Shown here: positions 15,467 through 55,841 of the stretch, piece by piece
Position numbering within the stretch: position 1 is the first letter of the stretch
Layout: each line of letters starts with the position of its first letter
IMG/VR virus record: IMGVR_UViG_3300016476_000468
Span: 39,913 to 103,912 of that record
DNA: 64,000 bases
DNA from: a virus
Lineage: Duplodnaviria > Heunggongvirae > Uroviricota > Caudoviricetes
Direction: 5' to 3' (one strand)
Made by a program: the position numbers and the translations under genes
The notes under the pieces: model-generated
Seen by the model: only the letters and a program-made list of their open reading frames with translations
The model's database searches: none
What the model was told of the DNA's origin: nothing

Positions 15467-16119
15467 TGAAAACTTTTATACATCATGATTTCCCCAAACT
15501 GGAACGTGACACAAGCCCCGATGGCACTAGAGTCTACAAGACGCCATCGGGTCGAGCCTATCCTTCCGTCACAACCGTCACCTCACTCCACAACGCAGAA
15601 GGAATCGCAAAGTGGCGAGCAAGAGTTGGCGCAGAAGAAGCAAACAGAATCTCATCAAAAGCAAGCGCACGTGGAACAAGAATCCACTCTCTCTGCGAGG
15701 CATACCTCCGCAATGAGAGATGTGAGCCTGACATCTTCGATAAAGAGTTATTTGGAAGTATTGAACAATGGCTCGGAGACATAGACAACATCCACGCACT
15801 AGAAGATCCTCTGTATTCAGATTATCTACAAGTTGCAGGAACTGTTGACTGTATTGCTGAGTTTCAGGGGAAACTTTCGATCATCGATTTCAAGACAGCC
15901 AGCAAGCCAAAAGACAGAGACGATATCTACAACTACTTTATGCAAACTGCAGCGTATTCGGTTGCATTTGAAGAACGTACTGGAATCCCTGTTGGTAGAC
16001 TTGTTATCATTATGGCAGTCGAAAATGACGATCCTCGTCTGTTTATCGAAAAGCGTGATAACTGGATCGGTGGTTTTAGAAAATTAAGACTTGACTACAA
16101 GAACAAGTTCGGGGTATAA
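15466..16119 (+). CDS. PD-(D/E)xK exonuclease (MGME1/Cas4-like)
   Basis: YPSVTTV, RGTRIH, AGTVDCI, IIDFKT and QTAAY motifs. Confidence 0.85.
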   Translation: MKTFIHHDFPKLERDTSPDGTRVYKTPSGRAYPSVTTVTSLHNAEGIAKWRARVGAEEANRISSKASARGTRIHSLCEAYLRNERCEPDIFDKELFGSIEQWLGDIDNIHALEDPLYSDYLQVAGTVDCIAEFQGKLSIIDFKTASKPKDRDDIYNYFMQTAAYSVAFEERTGIPVGRLVIIMAVENDDPRLFIEKRDNWIGGFRKLRLDYKNKFGV

Positions 16120-16124
16120 TAAAT
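16091..16124 (+). promoter_or_regulatory. overlapping sigma70 and late-type promoters for tmRNA
   Basis: TTGACT-18-TATAAT running into ATAAATA. Confidence 0.7.
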
Positions 16125-16126
16125 AC

Positions 16127-16476
16127 AGTTATTGCTGTATGAAGCAAAGAGAAAAGTGTTCTGGACGGGAGTTCGATTCTCCCCACCTCCACCAAAAGCA
16201 GACTAGAGACAGATAGGCAGTGTAACATATTCTAGACCATTTGTTACATACCTAGAAAAAGGCTGTTACTGGTAGTCAGACTCTAATGTTACCCATGAGT
16301 CTGCTTTTGATGGGGGTGACTAGGTTTCGACAGGGCAAAGAGTAACAGAGTGGACAGCACGACAGGAGTAGTCGTTAAAAGCAAACCAAAGTAAATGCAA
16401 ATGACTCTGTCTACGCATTAGCAGCCTAAACGCTGCTTAGGGTTTCGGTGGTTTCCTCGTAACAGAATAACCACCA
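16127..16476 (+). ncRNA. ssrA: circularly permuted (two-piece) tmRNA
   Basis: T-arm GGGAG-TTCGATT-CTCCC plus CACCTCC-A-CCA ending at 16194 lies upstream of the 5' end GGGGGTG (16312), pairing with a G3:U70 wobble; tag ORF 16397-16429 reads ANDSVYALAA*; outer ends approximate. Confidence 0.92.
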
Positions 16477-16495
16477 CTTTACAAAAGGAGATTCT

Positions 16496-39407: not shown

Positions 39408-41984
39408 ATGGCAACTTCAGCGCTATTGAAGTCTCCACTTCATAATTCTGTTGCTCAGGCGTTATACGACGAGATTCAGAATAGAAATGCGAGATATTAT
39501 TACTTCCTAGGTAGAACTCTAACTTGGGAGGATGATAGTACACCACCATATCCTATCGACAGTTTCGATTACGAGTTAAAGACTCGTAACGAGATTATCA
39601 CTATGAAGGAAATTAAGTCTACCGATGTTGCATTCGTAACAAATCGAGTAGACTGGGTCACTGGTCAGGTCTGGGATATGTATGATGACCAATATAGCGA
39701 TGAAGTACAAGGTATTAACTTAATTTCTGGTGGATACGGTTATTCCGATCCACCGACTGTCACAATCTCTGGCGGTGGCGGTACTGGTGCAGTAGCTGTT
39801 CCAGTCATCGATAATGGTGTTATTGTTTCTATCGAAATGGTAAATCGTGGTAGAGGCTATACTTCTGTGCCAACTGTAACTATTACAGGCGGTGGCGGTG
39901 AAGGCGCTTCTGCGACTGCCAGCGTTAGAATTGCATATTCTGGTGCGCAAAAATTAGAAGACATTAGATCTATCGTTATGACCGATGAGTATAACGTTTA
40001 CAAGTGTCTTGACAACAACAATAACGCAATTTCTACATACAAACCTATCGGTACTGTTGTAGATCCAGTTATTATGCCAGACGGATATATGTGGAAATAC
40101 TTGTATAGTATTCCAATCGCTCTGCGCAATAAATTCTTGACTGACGTTTATATGCCTGTCGTTAATGCTCTGCGTGGGCAGTTTTACTCTGGCGGAGAAA
40201 TTTTAAACGTTGTTCTTGAGAACAATGGACAGAATTACACATTCGCTAACATCGTAGTTTCTGGAGATGGATACAGAGCTAGTGATCCACTAGTTTTGCA
40301 GAACGTTCAAATTAGCGCTCCAGGCACAGGCTACAATAGTGGTGCTACTTGTACGATCGAACCTCCATTCTCTGGTGCTAACGTTTGGACATCTGGTGTT
40401 GCCATTCTTATGGGTCAAAAGGTTGAGTATAACAACAACCTTTACGAAGCAACAATGTCTGGTACTATGGCTGCTCCAGCGCCAACGCACAAGTATGGAA
40501 TTGTTACAAATGGAACAGCAGCACTAAAGTATATCGGTACTCGTGCTACAGGAACTGTTGTTACTAGTGGCGGACAGGTAACAGGCATCACGTTAAACGG
40601 ATCCATTTATGAGATTCTTGTCACAAACCCAGGATCTGGATATACATCTGCGCCCACAGTAAATCTTTCTGGTGGTGCAGGTTCTGGTTTTGTTGGTCAA
40701 TCTGTTATGCGTGGAACAGGTGTTGCGAGAGTAACTGTTTTAGATTCTGGTAACAACTATACTAGCGTTCCTACTGTAACTTTTGGTACAGCTTGGTCTG
40801 CTTCTACTGCGTATACAGTAGGACAACAGATTTATGCCTCTAACAGACTATACACAGTGACTACTGCAGGAACTTCTGGTTCTACTGCTCCAACACACGT
40901 TACAGGCGCTGCTTCTAACGGAACTGCTACACTAACTTATGTCGGCTCCCCAGCTACTGGCACTGCATCTTTAAAATATGGCTCTGGCTACTCTGTGTTA
41001 CCAGCTATCACTATTCAAGCTACTAGTGGTGGCTCTGGCGCTAAGGCATATTTTGTAGGTGTTAAATCTGAAGCTAAACTTATTCCCATTCTTTCTAATG
41101 GGCAGATTGTTGGTGTACAGATTGATGACGGCGGTGTTGGCTATACATATGCTAATATAACTGTAACAGGCGACGGAACTGATGCATCTTTAAGAGCAGA
41201 CCTTTCTCCAGGTGACATCAATACTCTACAGGCTAACACAGAACTATTGACTATTGATGGTAGAATTATGGCGTTTGACGTCATTTCTGGTGGTTATGGA
41301 TATGGAACTAACCCAACTATTACAATCGAAGGTGATGGTACAGGCGCAACAGCCCATGCAGTTGTAGTTGGTGGAGCCATTAAGAAAATTGTAGTAGATA
41401 CATACGGACAAGGCTATCGTTGGGCTACTGTTACTGTTACAGGCGGTGGTAATGGTGCTAAAGTCAGAGCTATTATGGCTCCATACGGTGGACACGGAAA
41501 GGATCCTATCGTTGGTTCTTTTGCAAGAACTCTTATGTTCTATACCAATATCTCTAAAGATACCAACCAAGGATTTAACGTTAACAACGACTTCCGTCAG
41601 TTGGGTATTATCAAAAACCCACGACAGTTTGGCTCTTATGGTAACCTTAAGACTTCTTTAGCATCAGCTTGTTATGTTTTGATTGGAACTGTTTCCGAGT
41701 CCTTTGAACCTGATATGTTAATCAGACTAGGTGATGCAGAAGGACCACGTTTTAGAATTGTTTCTAAAACAACTAATGGGATGTTGGTGCAGTCTATTGA
41801 TAATGCTGTGCCGCAAGTAGGTAATATTTTCTTAAATCCAAACTCAGTAACTTTCTCAGCTTCTGGAGTAACTCCTCCAACAGCAGATAAATATTCTGGT
41901 CAATTGCTGTTCATTGACAATAAACAAGCGTTTACACCGACAGCAGACCAGACAGTTACGCTGAGAACTGTCATCAAGTTCTAA
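39408..41984 (+). CDS. gp8: baseplate wedge gp8 with GxGY repeat and carbohydrate-binding-like insertions
   Basis: YYFLGR, YNVYKCLDN, DGYMWKYLY and NDFRQLGIIKNP motifs. Confidence 0.75.
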   Translation: MATSALLKSPLHNSVAQALYDEIQNRNARYYYFLGRTLTWEDDSTPPYPIDSFDYELKTRNEIITMKEIKSTDVAFVTNRVDWVTGQVWDMYDDQYSDEVQGINLISGGYGYSDPPTVTISGGGGTGAVAVPVIDNGVIVSIEMVNRGRGYTSVPTVTITGGGGEGASATASVRIAYSGAQKLEDIRSIVMTDEYNVYKCLDNNNNAISTYKPIGTVVDPVIMPDGYMWKYLYSIPIALRNKFLTDVYMPVVNALRGQFYSGGEILNVVLENNGQNYTFANIVVSGDGYRASDPLVLQNVQISAPGTGYNSGATCTIEPPFSGANVWTSGVAILMGQKVEYNNNLYEATMSGTMAAPAPTHKYGIVTNGTAALKYIGTRATGTVVTSGGQVTGITLNGSIYEILVTNPGSGYTSAPTVNLSGGAGSGFVGQSVMRGTGVARVTVLDSGNNYTSVPTVTFGTAWSASTAYTVGQQIYASNRLYTVTTAGTSGSTAPTHVTGAASNGTATLTYVGSPATGTASLKYGSGYSVLPAITIQATSGGSGAKAYFVGVKSEAKLIPILSNGQIVGVQIDDGGVGYTYANITVTGDGTDASLRADLSPGDINTLQANTELLTIDGRIMAFDVISGGYGYGTNPTITIEGDGTGATAHAVVVGGAIKKIVVDTYGQGYRWATVTVTGGGNGAKVRAIMAPYGGHGKDPIVGSFARTLMFYTNISKDTNQGFNVNNDFRQLGIIKNPRQFGSYGNLKTSLASACYVLIGTVSESFEPDMLIRLGDAEGPRFRIVSKTTNGMLVQSIDNAVPQVGNIFLNPNSVTFSASGVTPPTADKYSGQLLFIDNKQAFTPTADQTVTLRTVIKF

Positions 41985-48516: not shown

Positions 48517-49713
48517 ATGGCAAACATTTCAGCACCTTCAATCACGTTAAGAGCTACCAAAGGTAGCCCTTTAACGAACGCCGAAGTTGATGCTAACTTT
48601 ACTAATATTAGTAATGCACTACAAACTGGCTTAACCGCAGCTTCCTACACTGCAGCCGACGTTTTAGACAAACTTAAAACTGTTGACGGCTCTGGTTCTG
48701 GATTGGATGCCGATTTACTAGACGGATGGACGCAGGACACTGCTAACACGGTAAACACTATTGTTCGTCGTGATGCCTCTGGTAATTTTGCTGCTAACAA
48801 CATTACAGCTGCTACGTTTTCTGGCACTTTTTCTGGCGTAGCTGCAATCACTAGCGGTTCTATCACATTAACAACTGCTCTAGCAATTGGCTCTGGTGGT
48901 ACTGGTGCAACTACCGCTGCTGGCGCTAGAACAAACTTAGGTCTAGCTATTGGATCAGACGTTCAAGCATATGATAAAGAGTTGGCTGCTCTTGCAAGCG
49001 TAACTTCTGCTGCTGATAAACTTCCTTATTTTACTGGTGATGGTACTGCCGCAGTTACAGACTTTACATCTTTTGGTAGATCTCTAGTTGATGATGCTAA
49101 TGCTGGCGCTGCACGAACAACTTTAGGATTAGTCATTGGTACAGACGTACAAGGTTATAGTGCTAACTTAACTGCTATTTCTGGTCTAACTGCAACCACT
49201 GATAAAGGTCTCTATACTAGAACAGGTTCTGGTACTGCTGTTGTTCGAACAATCGCTGGTACTGCAAGCAGAATTGTAGTGACAAATGGATCTGGAGAGT
49301 CTGGTAACCCAACAATCGACTTAGGTTCTGACGTTCCTTCGCTTTCTGGTAATAATACCTTTGCTGGAACTTGCTCGTTCACTGCAGCTACGACTACTCT
49401 TAAAGCTGTGGTTGCTGACTCTTTCACCCAGGCTTCTGACGCTCGCTTAAAGGAAAACGTTCAGACACTAAATAATGCTGTAAACGTTGTTAATAGTCTA
49501 AGAGGCGTTTCTTACACCAGAGATGGAAAACAAGAGATCGGTCTTATTGCCCAGGAAGTTGAAAAACACCTACCACAAGTTGTTTCTACAACAGAAAGTG
49601 GTATGATGGGTATTTCATATTCTAACATGGTCGGTTTGTTAGTTGAAGCTATTAAAGAACAACAAAAGACTATTGACGAGCTAAATGCTCGACTAATTAA
49701 ACTGGAGAATTAA
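48517..49713 (+). CDS. tail fibre protein with C-terminal S74 intramolecular chaperone
   Basis: [15 protein letters not shown]-terminus; [22 protein letters not shown]. Confidence 0.85.
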
Positions 49714-49715
49714 AC

Positions 49716-50102
49716 ATGGCTTATCACGGCGCAACTGGTTTTAGACGTTCTGACGGTACAGACGTTGTAAACTTATTCTGGAATTATTACGACGCTGGAA
49801 ATAGAGACTATACCGAACCAAACGCTAACTGCGCTTGGAACTGTGCTTGTAACGCTTGTAACTCTGCATGTAACTGTAACTGCGGTAACTGTGATGCTGG
49901 CGACTTAGGTTTTGGTGTTACTACTGACCGTCGTATCAATATCTTCCGTAACACTTCTGTTGGTGGTGCGATCTCAGCATCTACAGACGGTATTCGTCAC
50001 GATAACCAAGACAACACTATGGGCGGATTCCAGTGGGCTAGAGTAAACTGTAACTGTAACTGTGCTTGCAACTGTAACTGTGCTTGCAACTGTAACTGTT
50101 AA
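49716..50102 (+). CDS. Cys/Asn-rich protein (17 Cys in two clusters), candidate radical SAM substrate
   Basis: NCAWNCACNACNSACNCNCGNC and C-terminal NCNCNCACNCNCACNCNC; GGAG RBS. Confidence 0.85.
   Translation: MAYHGATGFRRSDGTDVVNLFWNYYDAGNRDYTEPNANCAWNCACNACNSACNCNCGNCDAGDLGFGVTTDRRINIFRNTSVGGAISASTDGIRHDNQDNTMGGFQWARVNCNCNCACNCNCACNCNC
50046..50099 (+). repeat. tandem 18-bp/6-bp coding repeat
   Basis: AACTGTAACTGTGCTTGC at 50052 and 50070, plus a partial copy at 50088. Confidence 0.9.
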
Positions 50103-50113
50103 GGAATTGTATA

Positions 50114-51262
50114 ATGTTAAAAATTTTTAAAAGTATCATTAAAGGTAACTTAGATACAGAAACTTATGCTCGTGACACTAATCACAGAGTAACGATGGGT
50201 TATGACGCAGAAACTCAGACTATCAAAGTTAAAGTAGAAAAAGTTTTACCACCAAATCCAGATCTTTCTGAAGATCTTCCAGAGGATACACCTACTGTTT
50301 TGAGAGAACCTCACACAAGTGCAGATTTTGTTTTAATAGTAGAACGTGAGTTTAGCGCTACTGATTTTGTCTTTAAAAATGATAACACTAAGTGGCTGAT
50401 TGAGTATGATTCAAAAACTAAAACAATTAGTGACCCTATCGACGTTTACGAACTAGCTAAACAATATATTAATGGTAGTGCTTCTCACGAAAAGATTTAT
50501 TATAATCTAAACCAGTATCGTTATCAAGTAGACCCATCACTAACACCTTGTTTTATGTTGGATTGTTTTTATAAGTCTTTGGGGTTTGATGGATCTACTG
50601 TTCAATTCTTCGTTGAAGACTTACAGTTGGACTTCCTTGACACTGTTTTAGAAGTTCATGATAACCAAGAAATCACTGAAGTTACCCCAAAAGAATATGA
50701 ATTCTGGTGCCAGTATAACGCTAGAGTCGCAGTGACATTTGAGGTTCTAGACGAACAGGGTAAAATTGTTTCTTCTGCTATTCCAACTGTTAAACAAGAA
50801 GCTAAATCACCATTATTCCGAACACTACAGCAAAAGTCTCCAGTTGATTTAACTGATGTTTCTGACAATTTAGGAATTCAACCAACTGGCGCAGCAAATG
50901 GTAATCGTTTTTACGTTAAACTTCCTGCTACCGATATTCATAATATTCGTGTCCTGTTCGGTAGTAGAATTCATAATTTGATCGGACAACGACCATTCGT
51001 CACTTTTGATGTATCAACTGTTAATGGAGTTTCTAATAAATCTAGAATTTCTAATAGTTATAACCCAGAAGAACCAAACGTTTACGTTCAGGAATTTATA
51101 CAAAACCACAACCATCCTGCTGAAAAAATGAATACTGTGTTTTCTGGAGTTGAAGGTGTTATCATTAATACCACAGGATTAATTAGTGGTGATTTCTTTA
51201 AATTTAAGTTAAATTTGGGCGAATTCGTTTCTTGGGCGGAACTTTGGGTTGAGATTGAGTAA
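50114..51262 (+). CDS. hypothetical protein (382 aa)
   Basis: Long ORF with AAGGA RBS; no motif recognised. Confidence 0.8.
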   Translation: MLKIFKSIIKGNLDTETYARDTNHRVTMGYDAETQTIKVKVEKVLPPNPDLSEDLPEDTPTVLREPHTSADFVLIVEREFSATDFVFKNDNTKWLIEYDSKTKTISDPIDVYELAKQYINGSASHEKIYYNLNQYRYQVDPSLTPCFMLDCFYKSLGFDGSTVQFFVEDLQLDFLDTVLEVHDNQEITEVTPKEYEFWCQYNARVAVTFEVLDEQGKIVSSAIPTVKQEAKSPLFRTLQQKSPVDLTDVSDNLGIQPTGAANGNRFYVKLPATDIHNIRVLFGSRIHNLIGQRPFVTFDVSTVNGVSNKSRISNSYNPEEPNVYVQEFIQNHNHPAEKMNTVFSGVEGVIINTTGLISGDFFKFKLNLGEFVSWAELWVEIE

Positions 51263-51298
51263 CTAAATACTTTGTATTCTATATTATAAGGATTTTTA

Positions 51299-52762
51299 AT
51301 GAGTAAATTTACGCTAGTGTTGCAAGGCGCTAATGATGTGACGCTTAATATGATTTATGACCCAATGACATCTGAGATGTACTGGGAACATAACCACGAA
51401 AAACCCTCACTGGAACATATCAGTAAGGGTCTTCAATATCAAATGAATGCTAAGGTCTGGGAACCTGCGAATATTACAAACCCGCATGACCCAGAACTAC
51501 ACGGCAAAAAATCAAGAAAGCCAGTTACACTTAAGATCACAATGGGTCTAAAGTGTAACTACGCTTGTTCTTATTGCAACCAAGCCCACCAACCACACGA
51601 CCCAGTCGGCGGTCCAGATGACGCTGAGGAATTAGTGCGCAAGATGAAAGAGAACTTTTCTTTCAGCACGTATGATAACTTCCGTTTAGAATTTTGGGGC
51701 GGTGAACCTCTGGTTTATTGGAAGACTCTAAAACCACTAGCTGAGAAAGTTAAAAAGGTTTATCCTAACGCTCAGTTTATGATGGTTACCAATGGCTCTC
51801 TTTTGACAAGAGACAAAGTTGATTGGTTTAACCGTATGGGGTTTTCAATCGGTATGTCACACGATGGTCCATTGCACGCACAAAACCGTGGTCCAGATCC
51901 GTTGGACGAACCAGTAGCCAAAGACGCTATCGTGTACGCTCTGAAAACTATGGGCACTATGAGATTCACATTCAACTGTGTATTGACTAGAGAAAACGTA
52001 TCTCTGCCTGCGGTTCGTGAATTTATTATTAAGAAACTCAACAGAAAAGATGTAGGTTTTGATAATCCAGGAATCGAGCAGCGTGAGATTCAAGTCACAA
52101 CAGAAGAGCTAATGCTTCCTTACGATGACTCTGGTATGGCACATTCTCTTCAAACAACTGACGAGAAGAAAGAAATTCTACACACTTTATTTGAAGAAAC
52201 TATTGATGGCAAAAACCAGTTCAGCTGGACAGTTTATCAAAAGGTCAAGGGTTTCTTCGAGTCTATTGTATATGGTCGCCCAGCTGAAGCTGTTGGCCAA
52301 AAGTGTGGCATGGACAGAGAAGACAACATCGCCATCGATATGAAGGGTAATGTCACTACTTGCCAAAACACTTCTTCGCTAACTAAGCACAATATCGGTA
52401 ATATCGAAGACTTCGATAATATCCGTTTGACTAACTCTTACCATTGGTCTACTCGTAAGGAATGCCCTTCTTGCCCAGTAGTTCAGCTATGTCAAGGCGC
52501 TTGTTTGTTCTTAGAAGACCAATATTGGGAACAGGCGTGTGAAAACCTATTCTGGTATAACTTAGCTATGTTGAGTGCGGCATTGTTCAAGATGACTGAT
52601 GGTCTAGTATTGACTGAGATTCGAGGCGATCGTATTCGTTTTGACGGAGTTACTAGCATTCCAGTAATCGACATCGAATATATGAAGACTGGTAAAAAGA
52701 GTTGGAAGGTTCGTAAGCCACTAAACATCCCAGTAGTGCAAGTTCCAGTAGAACCTAAATAA
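51299..52762 (+). CDS. radical SAM/SPASM-domain protein
   Basis: CNYACSYC, FWGGEPL, VTNGSLL, SHDG; SPASM C..GNVTTC and CPSCPVVQLCQGAC; CTAAATA at 51263. Confidence 0.95.
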   Translation: MSKFTLVLQGANDVTLNMIYDPMTSEMYWEHNHEKPSLEHISKGLQYQMNAKVWEPANITNPHDPELHGKKSRKPVTLKITMGLKCNYACSYCNQAHQPHDPVGGPDDAEELVRKMKENFSFSTYDNFRLEFWGGEPLVYWKTLKPLAEKVKKVYPNAQFMMVTNGSLLTRDKVDWFNRMGFSIGMSHDGPLHAQNRGPDPLDEPVAKDAIVYALKTMGTMRFTFNCVLTRENVSLPAVREFIIKKLNRKDVGFDNPGIEQREIQVTTEELMLPYDDSGMAHSLQTTDEKKEILHTLFEETIDGKNQFSWTVYQKVKGFFESIVYGRPAEAVGQKCGMDREDNIAIDMKGNVTTCQNTSSLTKHNIGNIEDFDNIRLTNSYHWSTRKECPSCPVVQLCQGACLFLEDQYWEQACENLFWYNLAMLSAALFKMTDGLVLTEIRGDRIRFDGVTSIPVIDIEYMKTGKKSWKVRKPLNIPVVQVPVEPK

Positions 52763-53108: not shown

Positions 53109-54056
53109 ATGGAAAAGAAGCACGTAAAGTGGGTTATCGCCCATGAGCCAATCGGTTTGTTTCTAAAGGTTGCAGAAAGTTTCGCCAAAGAAGTCAATGA
53201 AAAGACTGGCGGCAAGTTTGATATCGAAGTTCTTTCTTTGTCTGACTACTCTACCAAGTACAACGGCGGCAAGAAAATCACTAAGAACGAATTGATGGCA
53301 TTGGTTGATACTGGCGCTATCGAAATGAGCCATATCTACACTACTTGGCTTGCAGATTACAACAAGGATCTACACGCTCTAGATCTACCATTCCTGTTCC
53401 GTGACCACGCTCACGCTGATGCAGTTTTGGAAGGCGAAGTTGGTACAGAGTTGCTAGCTGGCGTTGCTAAGAACAGCAACATCCACGCTATGTCTTTCAC
53501 TTACTCTGGTGGCTACCGTGTTGTTCCAGCTAACTTCAAGGCTGACACTGTTGACGCTTGGAAAGGTCAAACAGTTCGTACTAGCCGTTCTCCAGTTGCT
53601 GTTGAAACATTCAAGCTACTTGGCGCTGAACCAAAAGAGCACATCGCTCTAGAAGAAATGAACGAAGCAGCTGACGCTGGCGTTATTTCTGCTGGTGAAT
53701 CTACTTACGTTCGTATCTTCCCGCTAGATCAACATAAGTCTTTCAAGGTTGTTAACGATACAGCCCACAGCTTGTTCTTGACTTCTATCATCGTCAACCA
53801 AGACTTCATGAAGCAGTTCGATCAAGAAACTCAAGAGATTATGGCTACTGCAGCATTCAACGCTGCTCGTAAAGAGCGTCGTGAATCTGTTGCGGATATT
53901 CCTAACATTCTTGCAGAGTGCGAGCAAAAGGGCGTTGAAGTTGTGCGTATGAGCGAAACTGAACAGAAGAAATTCAAAGAAGTTACTTCTGCAGTTTACG
54001 AGAAGTTCGCTGACTACTTCACTCCAGGTCTTGTTCAGAAGATTCAGCTACACTAA
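53109..54056 (+). CDS. DctP/TRAP-type substrate-binding protein lacking a signal peptide
   Basis: FAKEVNEKTGGKFDIEV, LDLPFLFRD, VRTSRSP..FKLLGAEP; AAGGAG RBS. Confidence 0.85.
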   Translation: MEKKHVKWVIAHEPIGLFLKVAESFAKEVNEKTGGKFDIEVLSLSDYSTKYNGGKKITKNELMALVDTGAIEMSHIYTTWLADYNKDLHALDLPFLFRDHAHADAVLEGEVGTELLAGVAKNSNIHAMSFTYSGGYRVVPANFKADTVDAWKGQTVRTSRSPVAVETFKLLGAEPKEHIALEEMNEAADAGVISAGESTYVRIFPLDQHKSFKVVNDTAHSLFLTSIIVNQDFMKQFDQETQEIMATAAFNAARKERRESVADIPNILAECEQKGVEVVRMSETEQKKFKEVTSAVYEKFADYFTPGLVQKIQLH

Positions 54057-54113: not shown

Positions 54114-55217
54114 ATGAAACACCTGCTATATTACAATGTCGGCTTAATTAGATCACTAGACTTGATTAACACCATGCAAGAACCTATCGAAGAGTATCTT
54201 GCGCCGAATAGCAAAGAACTTTATGCATTCTTCGAGAAGCATAAGATGAACCTGAATGCTGTATACGACAGAACAGGCAGCACACCTCACTTTTTAAACA
54301 TCAAGCCTGGGCTATTACGCATCCCTAGCATTGATCCATCATTCAATAAGTCATTTAGACAGTGTGTAGAAGAAAGATGTAAAGAATTGGTGGAATTAGA
54401 CAAACCAATCACTGTTGTTTGGAGTGGTGGTATTGATAGTACACTGGCGCTATTCGCACTAATGCGTTATGTAGATGACCCTAGCCAGATTACAGTTTAC
54501 GGAACATATAGTTCTATTTTAGAATCTGGTCCATTATTTGACAACAAGATTAAAAACTCTGGTGTTAAGTACACGTTCAAAGTTTCTTCTACTAGAGATT
54601 TTGATGATGGTGACCCAAATAGTATCTTTGTGACTGGATTCTATGGTAACCAGCTATTTGGTCCAGTAGATGACTTCATCACTGGCAAGATCAAGACACC
54701 AATCTCATTTTTCCACCATCAGTTCAATAACGACGATCCATTAATCGACTACACCAAGTGTATCGATGATGAGCTACACGAATTCCTGCTGCCTTCTATC
54801 AAGGCTAGCCCTAAGAAAATCGAAACTTTAAGAGATCTTCGTTGGTGGTTAATTTTCAATTATGACTGGTACACGGCAGAGTACTCTAGTAGAGTTGCTA
54901 CTAAACAGCAGCATAACCAGTATCACTTCTATAATACAGACGATTTTCAACGTTATGTTATCACAACAAAAGAACCGTTTACAAAAGAAGTTGGTAAACC
55001 TCTAACTCATCGTTGGGTTATGCGAGAGTTGATTGAAGAGTATAGCGGCGACAGTTATTATGCATGGAATAAACCAAAAGGGGTTTCCGCACTTGGAAAC
55101 CCCATATCTTCTTGGTTATTTTTGCTAGAAGACTTTTCAGTCTATCATGCAAATAAAACTATCTTACGTGATCATCAAGAAATTTACTCGCACGTTAATC
55201 AACACATGGGTTTCTGA
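54114..55217 (+). CDS. PP-loop ATP pyrophosphatase (adenine nucleotide alpha hydrolase, asparagine synthase-like)
   Basis: VVWSGGIDST PP-loop; TGFYGNQLFG. Confidence 0.75.
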   Translation: MKHLLYYNVGLIRSLDLINTMQEPIEEYLAPNSKELYAFFEKHKMNLNAVYDRTGSTPHFLNIKPGLLRIPSIDPSFNKSFRQCVEERCKELVELDKPITVVWSGGIDSTLALFALMRYVDDPSQITVYGTYSSILESGPLFDNKIKNSGVKYTFKVSSTRDFDDGDPNSIFVTGFYGNQLFGPVDDFITGKIKTPISFFHHQFNNDDPLIDYTKCIDDELHEFLLPSIKASPKKIETLRDLRWWLIFNYDWYTAEYSSRVATKQQHNQYHFYNTDDFQRYVITTKEPFTKEVGKPLTHRWVMRELIEEYSGDSYYAWNKPKGVSALGNPISSWLFLLEDFSVYHANKTILRDHQEIYSHVNQHMGF

Positions 55218-55841
55218 TTCCATGTTAGTCTCTACATAACGCTGTGCATAGCCTGGAGAAACATAGATTTCACCAGGACGGCTCTTGATACCAAAACTAG
55301 TACTAACTAGGTTTTGCGCAGCCATTTTACGAATAGCCTGAACGCCGCCACGTGGGTCTGGGAAATAAGTCATAGGCGCTTGGTCGCCAGCGTTTGCAAC
55401 AAAGGTAAACACTAGAGTAGAAAACTCGTAGTTGTGCGGTGGGATATGTTCACCACGTTGTTGGAACAATGTGTTAGAACCAACAATAACTGGTGTTCTA
55501 CCCATATCGTCTCTAGAAAGCTGGATCGATTCGCAGATTTCGTAAATTACTTCTTTCAAGCGATTAACTGCTGGGTGATCTAGCTCCATAATATCTTTAG
55601 CGTTGCCGCCATCTAAAGCCTCGGAATCGTTAGATAAGTCGATTAGAGGTTGAGCGATCTGCTCCCAATCCGTGAATTTATAACTAGCAAAAAGAGTTGG
55701 GAATAGGTGTCTCTGGAATGTTTCTTCTACAGGAGAATAATCAAAGTTGTATTCTTCTGTCTTAGTTTCACCGATAATAGGTGATGGGATTGGTTCTACG
55801 TTTGTAATAGTACCATTTTGTGGTGGTTGAGTATTTTCCAT
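55164..55841 (-). CDS. 2OG-Fe(II) oxygenase-like protein (TIGR02466-type), degenerate
   Basis: LFPT, YFPDPRGG, PGEIYVSPG..VETN; TATAAATA on the minus strand near 55890. Confidence 0.55.
   Translation of the reverse strand: MENTQPPQNGTITNVEPIPSPIIGETKTEEYNFDYSPVEETFQRHLFPTLFASYKFTDWEQIAQPLIDLSNDSEALDGGNAKDIMELDHPAVNRLKEVIYEICESIQLSRDDMGRTPVIVGSNTLFQQRGEHIPPHNYEFSTLVFTFVANAGDQAPMTYFPDPRGGVQAIRKMAAQNLVSTSFGIKSRPGEIYVSPGYAQRYVETNMESETHVLINVRVNFLMIT

Follow-up and report, generated by a model that had tools for sequence, protein, structure and literature searches.

Why should a gene for a phage tail fibre be followed by a small Cys-rich gene and, two genes further on, by a radical S-adenosylmethionine (SAM) enzyme of the SPASM type? 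Tail-fibre tips decide which bacteria a phage infects and, to our knowledge, they are thought to mature solely by folding, chaperones, self-cleavage and metal binding. The question is raised by a locus in the virus record IMGVR_UViG_3300016476_000468 of IMG/VR, which we analysed within a window of 64,000 nucleotides (nt; positions 39,913 to 103,912 of the record), whose numbering is used throughout. The source genome is a complete 170.6-kb record with terminal repeats, belongs to a T4-like myovirus and encodes a VrlC-type structural protein of 2087 amino acids (aa); near-identical DNA occurs in freshwater and estuary metagenomes of several studies, with no RNA data set listed among those sequencing runs. 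The results presented here indicate that phages very probably use an enzyme to modify the tips of the fibres with which they recognise their hosts, and we rate at somewhat better than even the complete reading of the locus as a three-gene maturation module for the tail-fibre tip that uses thioether chemistry. The open reading frames (ORFs) concerned all lie on the plus strand, in the order fibre, tip protein, M (the third component) and radical SAM enzyme, and the features on which the argument draws are the following.

48517–49713, plus strand: tail fibre of 398 aa with a C-terminal S74 intramolecular chaperone domain (PF13884, tail-fibre PHROGs).
49716–50102, plus strand: putative Asn-Cys tip protein of 128 aa with 17 Cys (ORF, collinear with the fibre C-termini of nine other loci).
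49830–49892, plus strand: central Cys cluster of the tip protein, C39–C59, with nine Cys mostly in N/A-C pairs (kept in 18 relatives).
50046–50099, plus strand: C-terminal run NCNCNCACNCNCACNCNC, N111–C128, nine x-Cys pairs up to the stop codon, proposed substrate of the enzyme (invariant Cys).
50114–51262, plus strand: M protein of 382 aa (partner family, by profile-profile match).
51263–51269, plus strand: CTAAATA heptamer, a possible T4-type late promoter element (29 nt before the ATG of the enzyme).
51299–52762, plus strand: radical SAM/SPASM enzyme of 487 aa, phage family phrog_1802 (Pfam, NCBIfam, PHROGs).
51554–51577, plus strand: CX3CX2C motif of the enzyme, C86/C90/C93, binding the radical SAM [4Fe-4S] cluster (invariant in alignments).
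52304–52540, plus strand: SPASM region of the enzyme with seven Cys, C336, C355, C389, C392, C398, C402 and C414 (invariant in alignments).

A preliminary description of this DNA, made from the sequence without database searches, had reported a 128-aa protein with 17 Cys in two clusters starting 2 nt after an S74-chaperoned fibre and, further downstream, a complete radical SAM enzyme with SPASM Cys. Both statements were borne out, the former by the ORFs, in which exactly 2 nt separate the fibre stop codon from the ATG of the Cys-rich gene, and the latter by matches to PF04055 and TIGR04085 and by the invariance of the Cys. The fibre gene matches PF13884 at residues 307–356 (E = 2.6e-13, 50.5 bits against a cut-off of 22), which identifies it as an S74-chaperoned fibre, and it also matches 36 tail-fibre PHROGs. 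An S74 fibre gene adjoins the tip gene in 20 relatives and in two loci of the nearest sister lineage (L080 and L035). A gene on the opposite strand at the position of the Cys-rich ORF was considered and ruled out, the minus strand offering only a 48-aa ORF.

The preliminary description had proposed that the Cys-rich protein is the fibre-associated substrate of a RiPP-like modification (RiPP, ribosomally synthesised and post-translationally modified peptide) of a virion protein, and had suggested a survey of NCNC genes beside radical SAM genes in phage genomes. Such a survey was carried out with plain stop-to-stop ORFs as gene calls; many of the loci come from related prophage lineages, and the counts do not represent independent events. 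A scan of IMG/VR with the enzyme returned at least 576 relatives, 21 of them close, and bacterial genomes yielded 195, for the most part from freshwater Alpha- and Betaproteobacteria (Limnohabitans, Polynucleobacter and Ferrovibrio among them). When loci were anchored on the enzyme, 63 unique IMG/VR loci offered 3 kb or more of upstream sequence, and in 60 of them an ORF of 80 aa or longer, upstream on the same strand, contains an NCNC(xC)n run. In two of the remaining three the run is slightly shorter, leaving a single locus (L055) without one. When loci were anchored instead on a DNA pattern for NCNCNCxCxC, in a scan blind to the enzyme, the enzyme was found downstream on the same strand for 43 of the 45 ORFs with at least 3.5 kb downstream, at a median distance from the run ORF of 1.2 kb and a minimum of 22 nt. 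Where the enzyme was missing, the run was either a microsatellite-like stretch within a tiny ORF or lay inside an unrelated protein. Prophage loci in bacterial genomes gave the same picture, with the run present in 56 of 60 informative cases.

Over all three tallies, the run and the enzyme family occur together in 159 of 168 informative loci, and the module recurs in more than 100 phages and prophages of unrelated types. The link between run and enzyme is beyond chance. The suggested co-occurrence thus held in three independent collections and, together with the fusion of the run to fibre C-termini in most other phages, the presence of each gene beside the other in both directions of search supports the proposal of a fibre-associated substrate. 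In the whole 170.6-kb genome the radical SAM gene is the only one of its kind, as is the genuine alternating-Cys ORF. Among the loci surveyed, enzyme identity drops to about 33–38 %. Furthermore, tblastn with the enzyme revealed homologs of 34–38 % identity in three culturable phages, Ralstonia phage RSP15 and Achromobacter phages JWF and 2-1, each located just 3' of tail genes. In phage 2-1, a fibre-like protein two genes 5' of the enzyme contains NCNCDCNCSC, and the 'side tail fibre' of RSP15 ends in NCQCGN.

The relationship between the 128-aa protein and phage fibres became apparent in alignments, where it is collinear with the last ~135 residues of long single-chain fibres from nine other loci. 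It shares with them, in order, an ATGF-x-x-x-DGTD start motif, YYD, N-x-NC, LGF, an R-H/R-D/N element, GGF and the terminal run, and the start motif common to the tip protein and the long carriers was recovered by hhalign with a probability of 96.3 % (E = 1.8e-9). On the strength of this alignment, the 128-aa protein is a detached fibre tip domain, encoded in the window lineage as a separate polypeptide behind an S74-chaperoned fibre. It is probably part of the virion. The central Cys cluster is conserved in 18 relatives and mostly missing from the aligned tips of the long carriers, an expansion gained in the window lineage. The terminal run keeps every Cys in 15 relatives of the window, with synonymous variation in its Asn, Cys and Ala codons, a pattern that argues for selection on the run at the protein level and that ruled out a DNA microsatellite or repeat artefact as its origin. 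The tip protein gave no match in Pfam, PHROGs or NCBIfam and no usable match in the ESM Atlas; likewise, neither the region (by blastn) nor the 128-aa and 382-aa proteins (by tblastn) had a match among 50,697 phage records, in BLAST searches whose low-complexity filter may mask such runs.

Run statistics were compiled from 124 unique carriers with the enzyme downstream. The run comprises 4–11 x-Cys pairs (median 6), of which the first three are a nearly invariant NCNCNC, and its non-Cys positions are occupied by N (70 %), A (17 %) and D (7 %). It ends at the stop codon in 61 carriers, within seven residues of the stop in 53 and directly before a Hint domain in 10. The carriers have a median length of 205 aa and a maximum of 730 aa. 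Ten of them were scanned against PHROGs, eight matching PHROG families and seven, of up to 726 aa, matching tail-fibre families, and several contain collagen-like repeats; by these matches the carriers are tail fibres.

Self-cleavage is typical of Hint domains. Pfam sets such a domain (PF05203, E = 5e-12) at the last Cys of the run in Achromobacter phage 2-1, where its removal by self-cleavage would place the run at the mature C-terminus. Direct fusion of the Asn-Cys run to a Hint (intein-like) domain was also observed in the fibres of loci L002 (3853–5295), L038, L043, L063, L103, L118, L165 and others, the first Hint Cys being either the last Cys of the run or located after it. In these fibres the Hint domain appears to stand in for the S74 chaperone domain of others.

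The enzyme itself matches PF04055 with 41 bits (cut-off 29.5) and carries C86, C90 and C93, which place it in the radical SAM superfamily, and it matches TIGR04085 with 37.5 bits (cut-off 27), which places it in the SPASM subfamily. The spacing of its C-terminal Cys, C336-x13-G350-x4-C355, C389-x2-C392-x5-C398-x3-C402 and C414, was read against the consensus CX9-15GX4C ... CX2CX5CX3C ... C, which stands for two auxiliary [4Fe-4S] clusters (TIGR04085 definition), and both the CX3CX2C motif and the seven SPASM Cys are invariant in 24 aligned sequences. Residues 60–417 match positions 28–391 of the 556 in the phrog_1802 profile (E = 1.7e-64), so that the enzyme belongs to this family, annotated only as 'radical SAM domain-containing protein'. 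The 48 weak NCBIfam matches are headed by PapB (NF047865; 75.8 bits against a cut-off of 340), of which the enzyme is a relative and not a member. It also falls outside the families of the SCIFF maturase (TIGR03974; 45.9 bits against 425) and of the anaerobic sulfatase-maturating enzyme anSME (TIGR03942; 59.9 bits against 349), and the QhpD model returned 57.9 bits (E = 6.9e-16) against a cut-off of 453. The structure closest to its AlphaFold2 model (pLDDT, the predicted local distance difference test, 89.3) is CteB (E = 3e-15), followed by anSME (E = 4e-13) and then by ChlB, TigE, SuiB and SkfB, with EpeE also among the fold matches (E about 2e-6). We take anSME to ligate both auxiliary clusters by eight Cys; here only seven are conserved. 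The homolog in Achromobacter phage JWF is labelled anSME in one GenBank record.

Given the bidirectional co-occurrence across unrelated phages, the run is very likely the target of the enzyme, and the one-to-one pairing of the two in the genome and the peptide- or protein-maturase fold of the enzyme agree with this. In the mechanism that we propose, the 128-aa protein would form the distal tip domain of the fibre, with an (Asn/Ala/Asp-Cys)n C-terminus, and the enzyme, made in the infected cell, would modify this run post-translationally. It would take a hydrogen atom from C-alpha or C-beta of Asn, Asp or Ala, and that carbon would then be bonded to the sulfur of a neighbouring Cys, the outcome being a ladder of reduction-resistant thioethers that stiffens and locks the tip. 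M would act as a partner of the tip, either as a terminal adhesin or as an assembly chaperone, and would evolve fast in the manner of host-range determinants.

Regarding the product, the balance tilts modestly towards a thioether cross-link. This is the best-supported chemistry because the nearest relatives by structure and by hidden Markov model make Cys thioethers, and because Asn, Asp and Ala are known acceptors. In NxxcA, NxxcB forms a thioether from Cys to the C-beta of Asn at N-x-x-C spacing, and freyrasin, the product of PapB, contains six Cys-Asp thioethers (PMC8326336, PMC12373016); QhpD, which matures quinohemoprotein amine dehydrogenase, installs Cys-Asp and Cys-Glu thioethers in a protein subunit, QhpC (PMC8326336). 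The N-x-x-C spacing of NxxcB is built into an (NC)n run, which favours a thioether, and the precedent of QhpD on protein subunits makes such chemistry plausible on a fibre tip. A bolder version, which we regard as unlikely, has the enzyme staple the three chains of a trimeric tip by inter-chain Cys-to-Asn/Asp thioethers into a locked needle, proof against reduction and proteases, on which the M adhesin docks.

Several observations weigh against thioether formation by a dedicated module. The maturase models score far below their cut-offs, which marks a distinct family whose reaction is not readable from homology, and anSME, which converts Cys to formylglycine, is structurally nearly as close to the enzyme as CteB. 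In the model, a small three-stranded sheet and an ordered coil make up the first 75 residues, which contain no helices and thus show no winged-helix RiPP recognition element, so that the N-terminal extension does not have the canonical form of the peptide-recognition element that it had been suggested to be. Locus L055 has the enzyme and no run within 7 kb. In L080 and L035 the enzyme lies ~4.8 kb from the tip gene with unrelated genes between them, and linkage is therefore by module and not by strict adjacency. Finally, alternating Cys could also bind metals, and the chemistry proposed here is a prediction from genes and models.

The alternative that survives best, although we consider it doubtful, is that the enzyme modifies the run without cross-linking it, either by converting Cys to formylglycine in the manner of anSME or by epimerising alternate residues to give a beta-helix-like tip; radical SAM epimerases such as PoyD, alongside EpeE/YydG, make D-residues. 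The strict two-residue periodicity of the run would fit a regular alternating modification, and anSME, as the second-best fold match and with its 59.9-bit model score, and EpeE, as a further fold match, provide candidates for it. However, both the anSME and the epimerase matches are weaker than that to CteB, the C/S-x-P/A-x-R motif is absent from the tip protein, and the invariance of the Cys suggests that sulfur chemistry is the purpose of the run, whose non-Cys residues N, D and A are all known thioether acceptors (PMC8326336).

Less probable again is a run that binds metal or forms disulfides, with the enzyme acting on M, on another fibre residue or on a small molecule. Metal binding needs no dedicated radical SAM enzyme, and this explanation leaves the co-occurrence in 159 of 168 loci unaccounted for. 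In its favour, Cys-x-Cys repeats are classic metal ligands, and a beta-strand would turn all Cys of the run to one side, as fits axial metal sites in a trimer; the gp37 needle of T4 has His-x-His iron sites along its trimer axis. The competing thioether, moreover, is deduced from sequence and models.

Finally, release of the Cys-rich protein at lysis as the precursor of a RiPP or bacteriocin, which the preliminary description had also entertained, is very improbable: a small Cys-rich ORF beside a SPASM maturase does resemble a RiPP cluster, and in a few loci a carrier of ~100 aa abuts the enzyme with gaps of 22–200 nt, but most scanned carriers match tail-fibre families and carriers extend to 730 aa of fibre, the window protein shares homology with the tip domain at their C-terminus, its gene lies within the structural region between a fibre gene and a fast-evolving partner, and the module has neither a conserved leader protease nor a conserved exporter.

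The ORF at 50114, treated as optional in the preliminary description, proved to be a conserved third component of the proposed thioether module. A single family occupies the position directly 3' of the Asn-Cys carrier in the window and in 18 further clustered loci, and RSP15 gp047 is one of its members. The profile of the window M protein matches this family by hhalign with a probability of 98.1 % (E = 9.5e-14, 278 columns), which establishes its membership; as a single sequence M matches weakly (probability 21 %), and the profile of relatives was needed. In 13 of 14 related loci no gene is less conserved than M, whose median identity among relatives is 32 %, compared with 79 % for the enzyme and 61 % for the tip protein, a divergence pattern typical of host-range determinants.

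AlphaFold2 gave a confident model of M, with a pLDDT of 87.7 and a predicted template modelling score (pTM) of 0.84, to which BFVD offered only uncharacterised phage proteins (the best with 271 aa, E = 3.2e-14 and a TM-score of 0.70, normalised to target length). Residues 205–382 match generic immunoglobulin (Ig)-like sandwiches in the PDB (Z 5–7.4, VIA-align), suggesting that the C-terminal half is an Ig-like beta-sandwich, and residues 1–204 gave no clear match. No match to M was found in Pfam, PHROGs or NCBIfam, none was significant in profile searches of solved structures and Pfam, and Foldseek on the PDB returned none at E <= 0.001; the ESM Atlas gave unnamed viral clusters only. A reading of M as a PapD-like chaperone was considered and could not be established from matches to generic Ig-like sandwiches. 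The predicted complex of M and the tip protein scored 0.00, in a calculation for which controls were not run, and speaks neither for nor against binding. We interpret M as a tip partner that would serve as adhesin or as chaperone.

Comparison with known systems places the module close to, and outside, RiPP biosynthesis. As in CteB/CteA (SCIFF; PDB 5WGG/5WHY), PapB/PapA and NxxcB/NxxcA, a seven-Cys SPASM enzyme is encoded beside a Cys-rich substrate; NxxcB and PapB use Asn or Asp near Cys as acceptors, and the N-x-x-C spacing is present throughout the run described here. Unlike in ranthipeptide and sactipeptide systems, the substrate is the tip of a fibre of up to 730 aa and not a short leader and core, the (x-Cys)n alternation is strict, there is a third partner, M, and the genes lie in a phage structural region; in addition, the module lacks a modelled winged-helix recognition element, a protease and an exporter, and its enzyme scores below all equivalog cut-offs. 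A maturase and a Cys-rich 'core' are thus present as in RiPP clusters, with the tip domain or the whole fibre in place of the 'leader' and without a conserved protease or transporter. From its gene content, the module would work like a RiPP system without being one in the usual sense.

Two further SPASM enzymes offer parallels outside secreted peptides. QhpD resembles the phage enzyme in acting on a structural protein subunit, although its substrate QhpC is a small periplasmic enzyme subunit with another motif and no link to virions. Similarly, anSME (PDB 4K36–4K39) acts on the Cys of a folded protein substrate that is not a RiPP, but its C/S-x-P/A-x-R substrate motif has no counterpart here. 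The layout of the locus also recalls gp37/gp38, in that an S74-type fibre gene is followed by small genes with products expected at the tip and the fastest-evolving gene stands directly after the tip gene. In T2- and S16-type phages, gp37 carries a self-cleaving C-terminal chaperone, with gp38 bound to the newly formed tip. We know of no sequence or fold relation of M or the tip protein to gp38, nor of a radical SAM enzyme or Cys run in T2 or S16 systems.

No description of the module was found in the full-text literature on radical SAM/SPASM enzymes, ranthipeptides, Hint domains and phage tail fibres; a radical SAM maturase appears in one cyanophage paper under the label 'antibiotic synthesis gene' and is not analysed further there (PMC12801897). 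To the picture drawn from other loci, the window adds a split-tip architecture in a T4-like myovirus, with a tip protein collinear with fibre tips, and the placement of the middle ORF in the partner family together with the fast divergence of that partner. If the proposed reading is true, enzymatic post-translational chemistry would be added to virion assembly, through a family with more than 570 viral relatives and 195 in bacterial genomes, and RiPP-type thioether chemistry would extend to large structural proteins. It would also provide a portable pair of tag and enzyme, in which an (Asn-Cys)n tail of 10–20 residues yields reduction-proof, cross-linked protein ends. Should the inter-chain stapling considered above be true, it would provide the first example in phage tails of a covalent cross-link installed by an enzyme and add virion proteins, for the first time, to the known substrates of radical SAM enzymes; among phages of freshwater and soil Proteobacteria it would be common.

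The gene content of the module varies among loci. L080 (4078–5585) and L035, whose enzymes are 65–71 % identical to that of the window, have two tandem fatty-acid-desaturase-like genes (PF00487, E about 1e-16) between the M and radical SAM genes, and a homolog of RSP15 gp046 lies likewise between them; the module can therefore house extra, possibly modifying, enzymes. A second, shorter radical SAM paralog of ~335 aa is located directly 5' of the main enzyme in L036 (5977–6984) and L040 (5966–6982), and a putative 2-oxoglutarate (2OG)-Fe(II) oxygenase (PF13759, weak match) occupies the same position in seven loci, for instance L046 (6308–6976). In Ralstonia jumbo phage RP12 (L003, 400–7125), three consecutive radical SAM genes are preceded by genes for an M-like protein of 295 aa (weak BFVD fold match, E = 1.2e-3) and for a 125-aa protein without Cys that has His-x-His and Tyr/Trp-rich motifs, which may represent another substrate chemistry for the same enzyme family.

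Returning to the window, the CTAAATA heptamer upstream of the enzyme, described earlier as a late promoter motif, is indeed present at 51263; with 17 occurrences counted in the window against 11.7 +/- 3.4 expected the heptamer is not enriched, and therefore supports nothing alone. The genes 3' of the enzyme (a 110-aa ORF, a DctP gene and a 367-aa ORF) were considered as parts of the module and rejected, being kept in the closest lineage only and absent beside the enzyme in L080 and L035. The 110-aa ORF has no match in Pfam, PHROGs or NCBIfam. The DctP-type solute-binding protein of a tripartite ATP-independent periplasmic (TRAP) transporter (53109–54056, plus strand; PF03480, E = 4e-43) is the most conserved of the neighbourhood, with 76–91 % identity among relatives, and is probably an auxiliary metabolic gene outside the fibre module. 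The 367-aa ORF (54114–55217, plus strand) shows faint PP-loop matches, asparagine synthase- or QueC-like, and is followed convergently, with ~50 nt of overlap, by a 2OG-Fe(II) oxygenase on the minus strand (55164–55841; phrog_81, E = 3.6e-12); both are kept in the close lineage. Elsewhere in the window, a permuted two-piece transfer-messenger RNA (tmRNA) of betaproteobacterial type (16082–16481, plus strand; Rfam RF01850, 118 bits, and RF04321, 130 bits) encodes, according to ARAGORN, the tag peptide ANDSVYALAA. The type of this tmRNA suggests a betaproteobacterial host, in line with the prophages carrying the module in Limnohabitans and Polynucleobacter.

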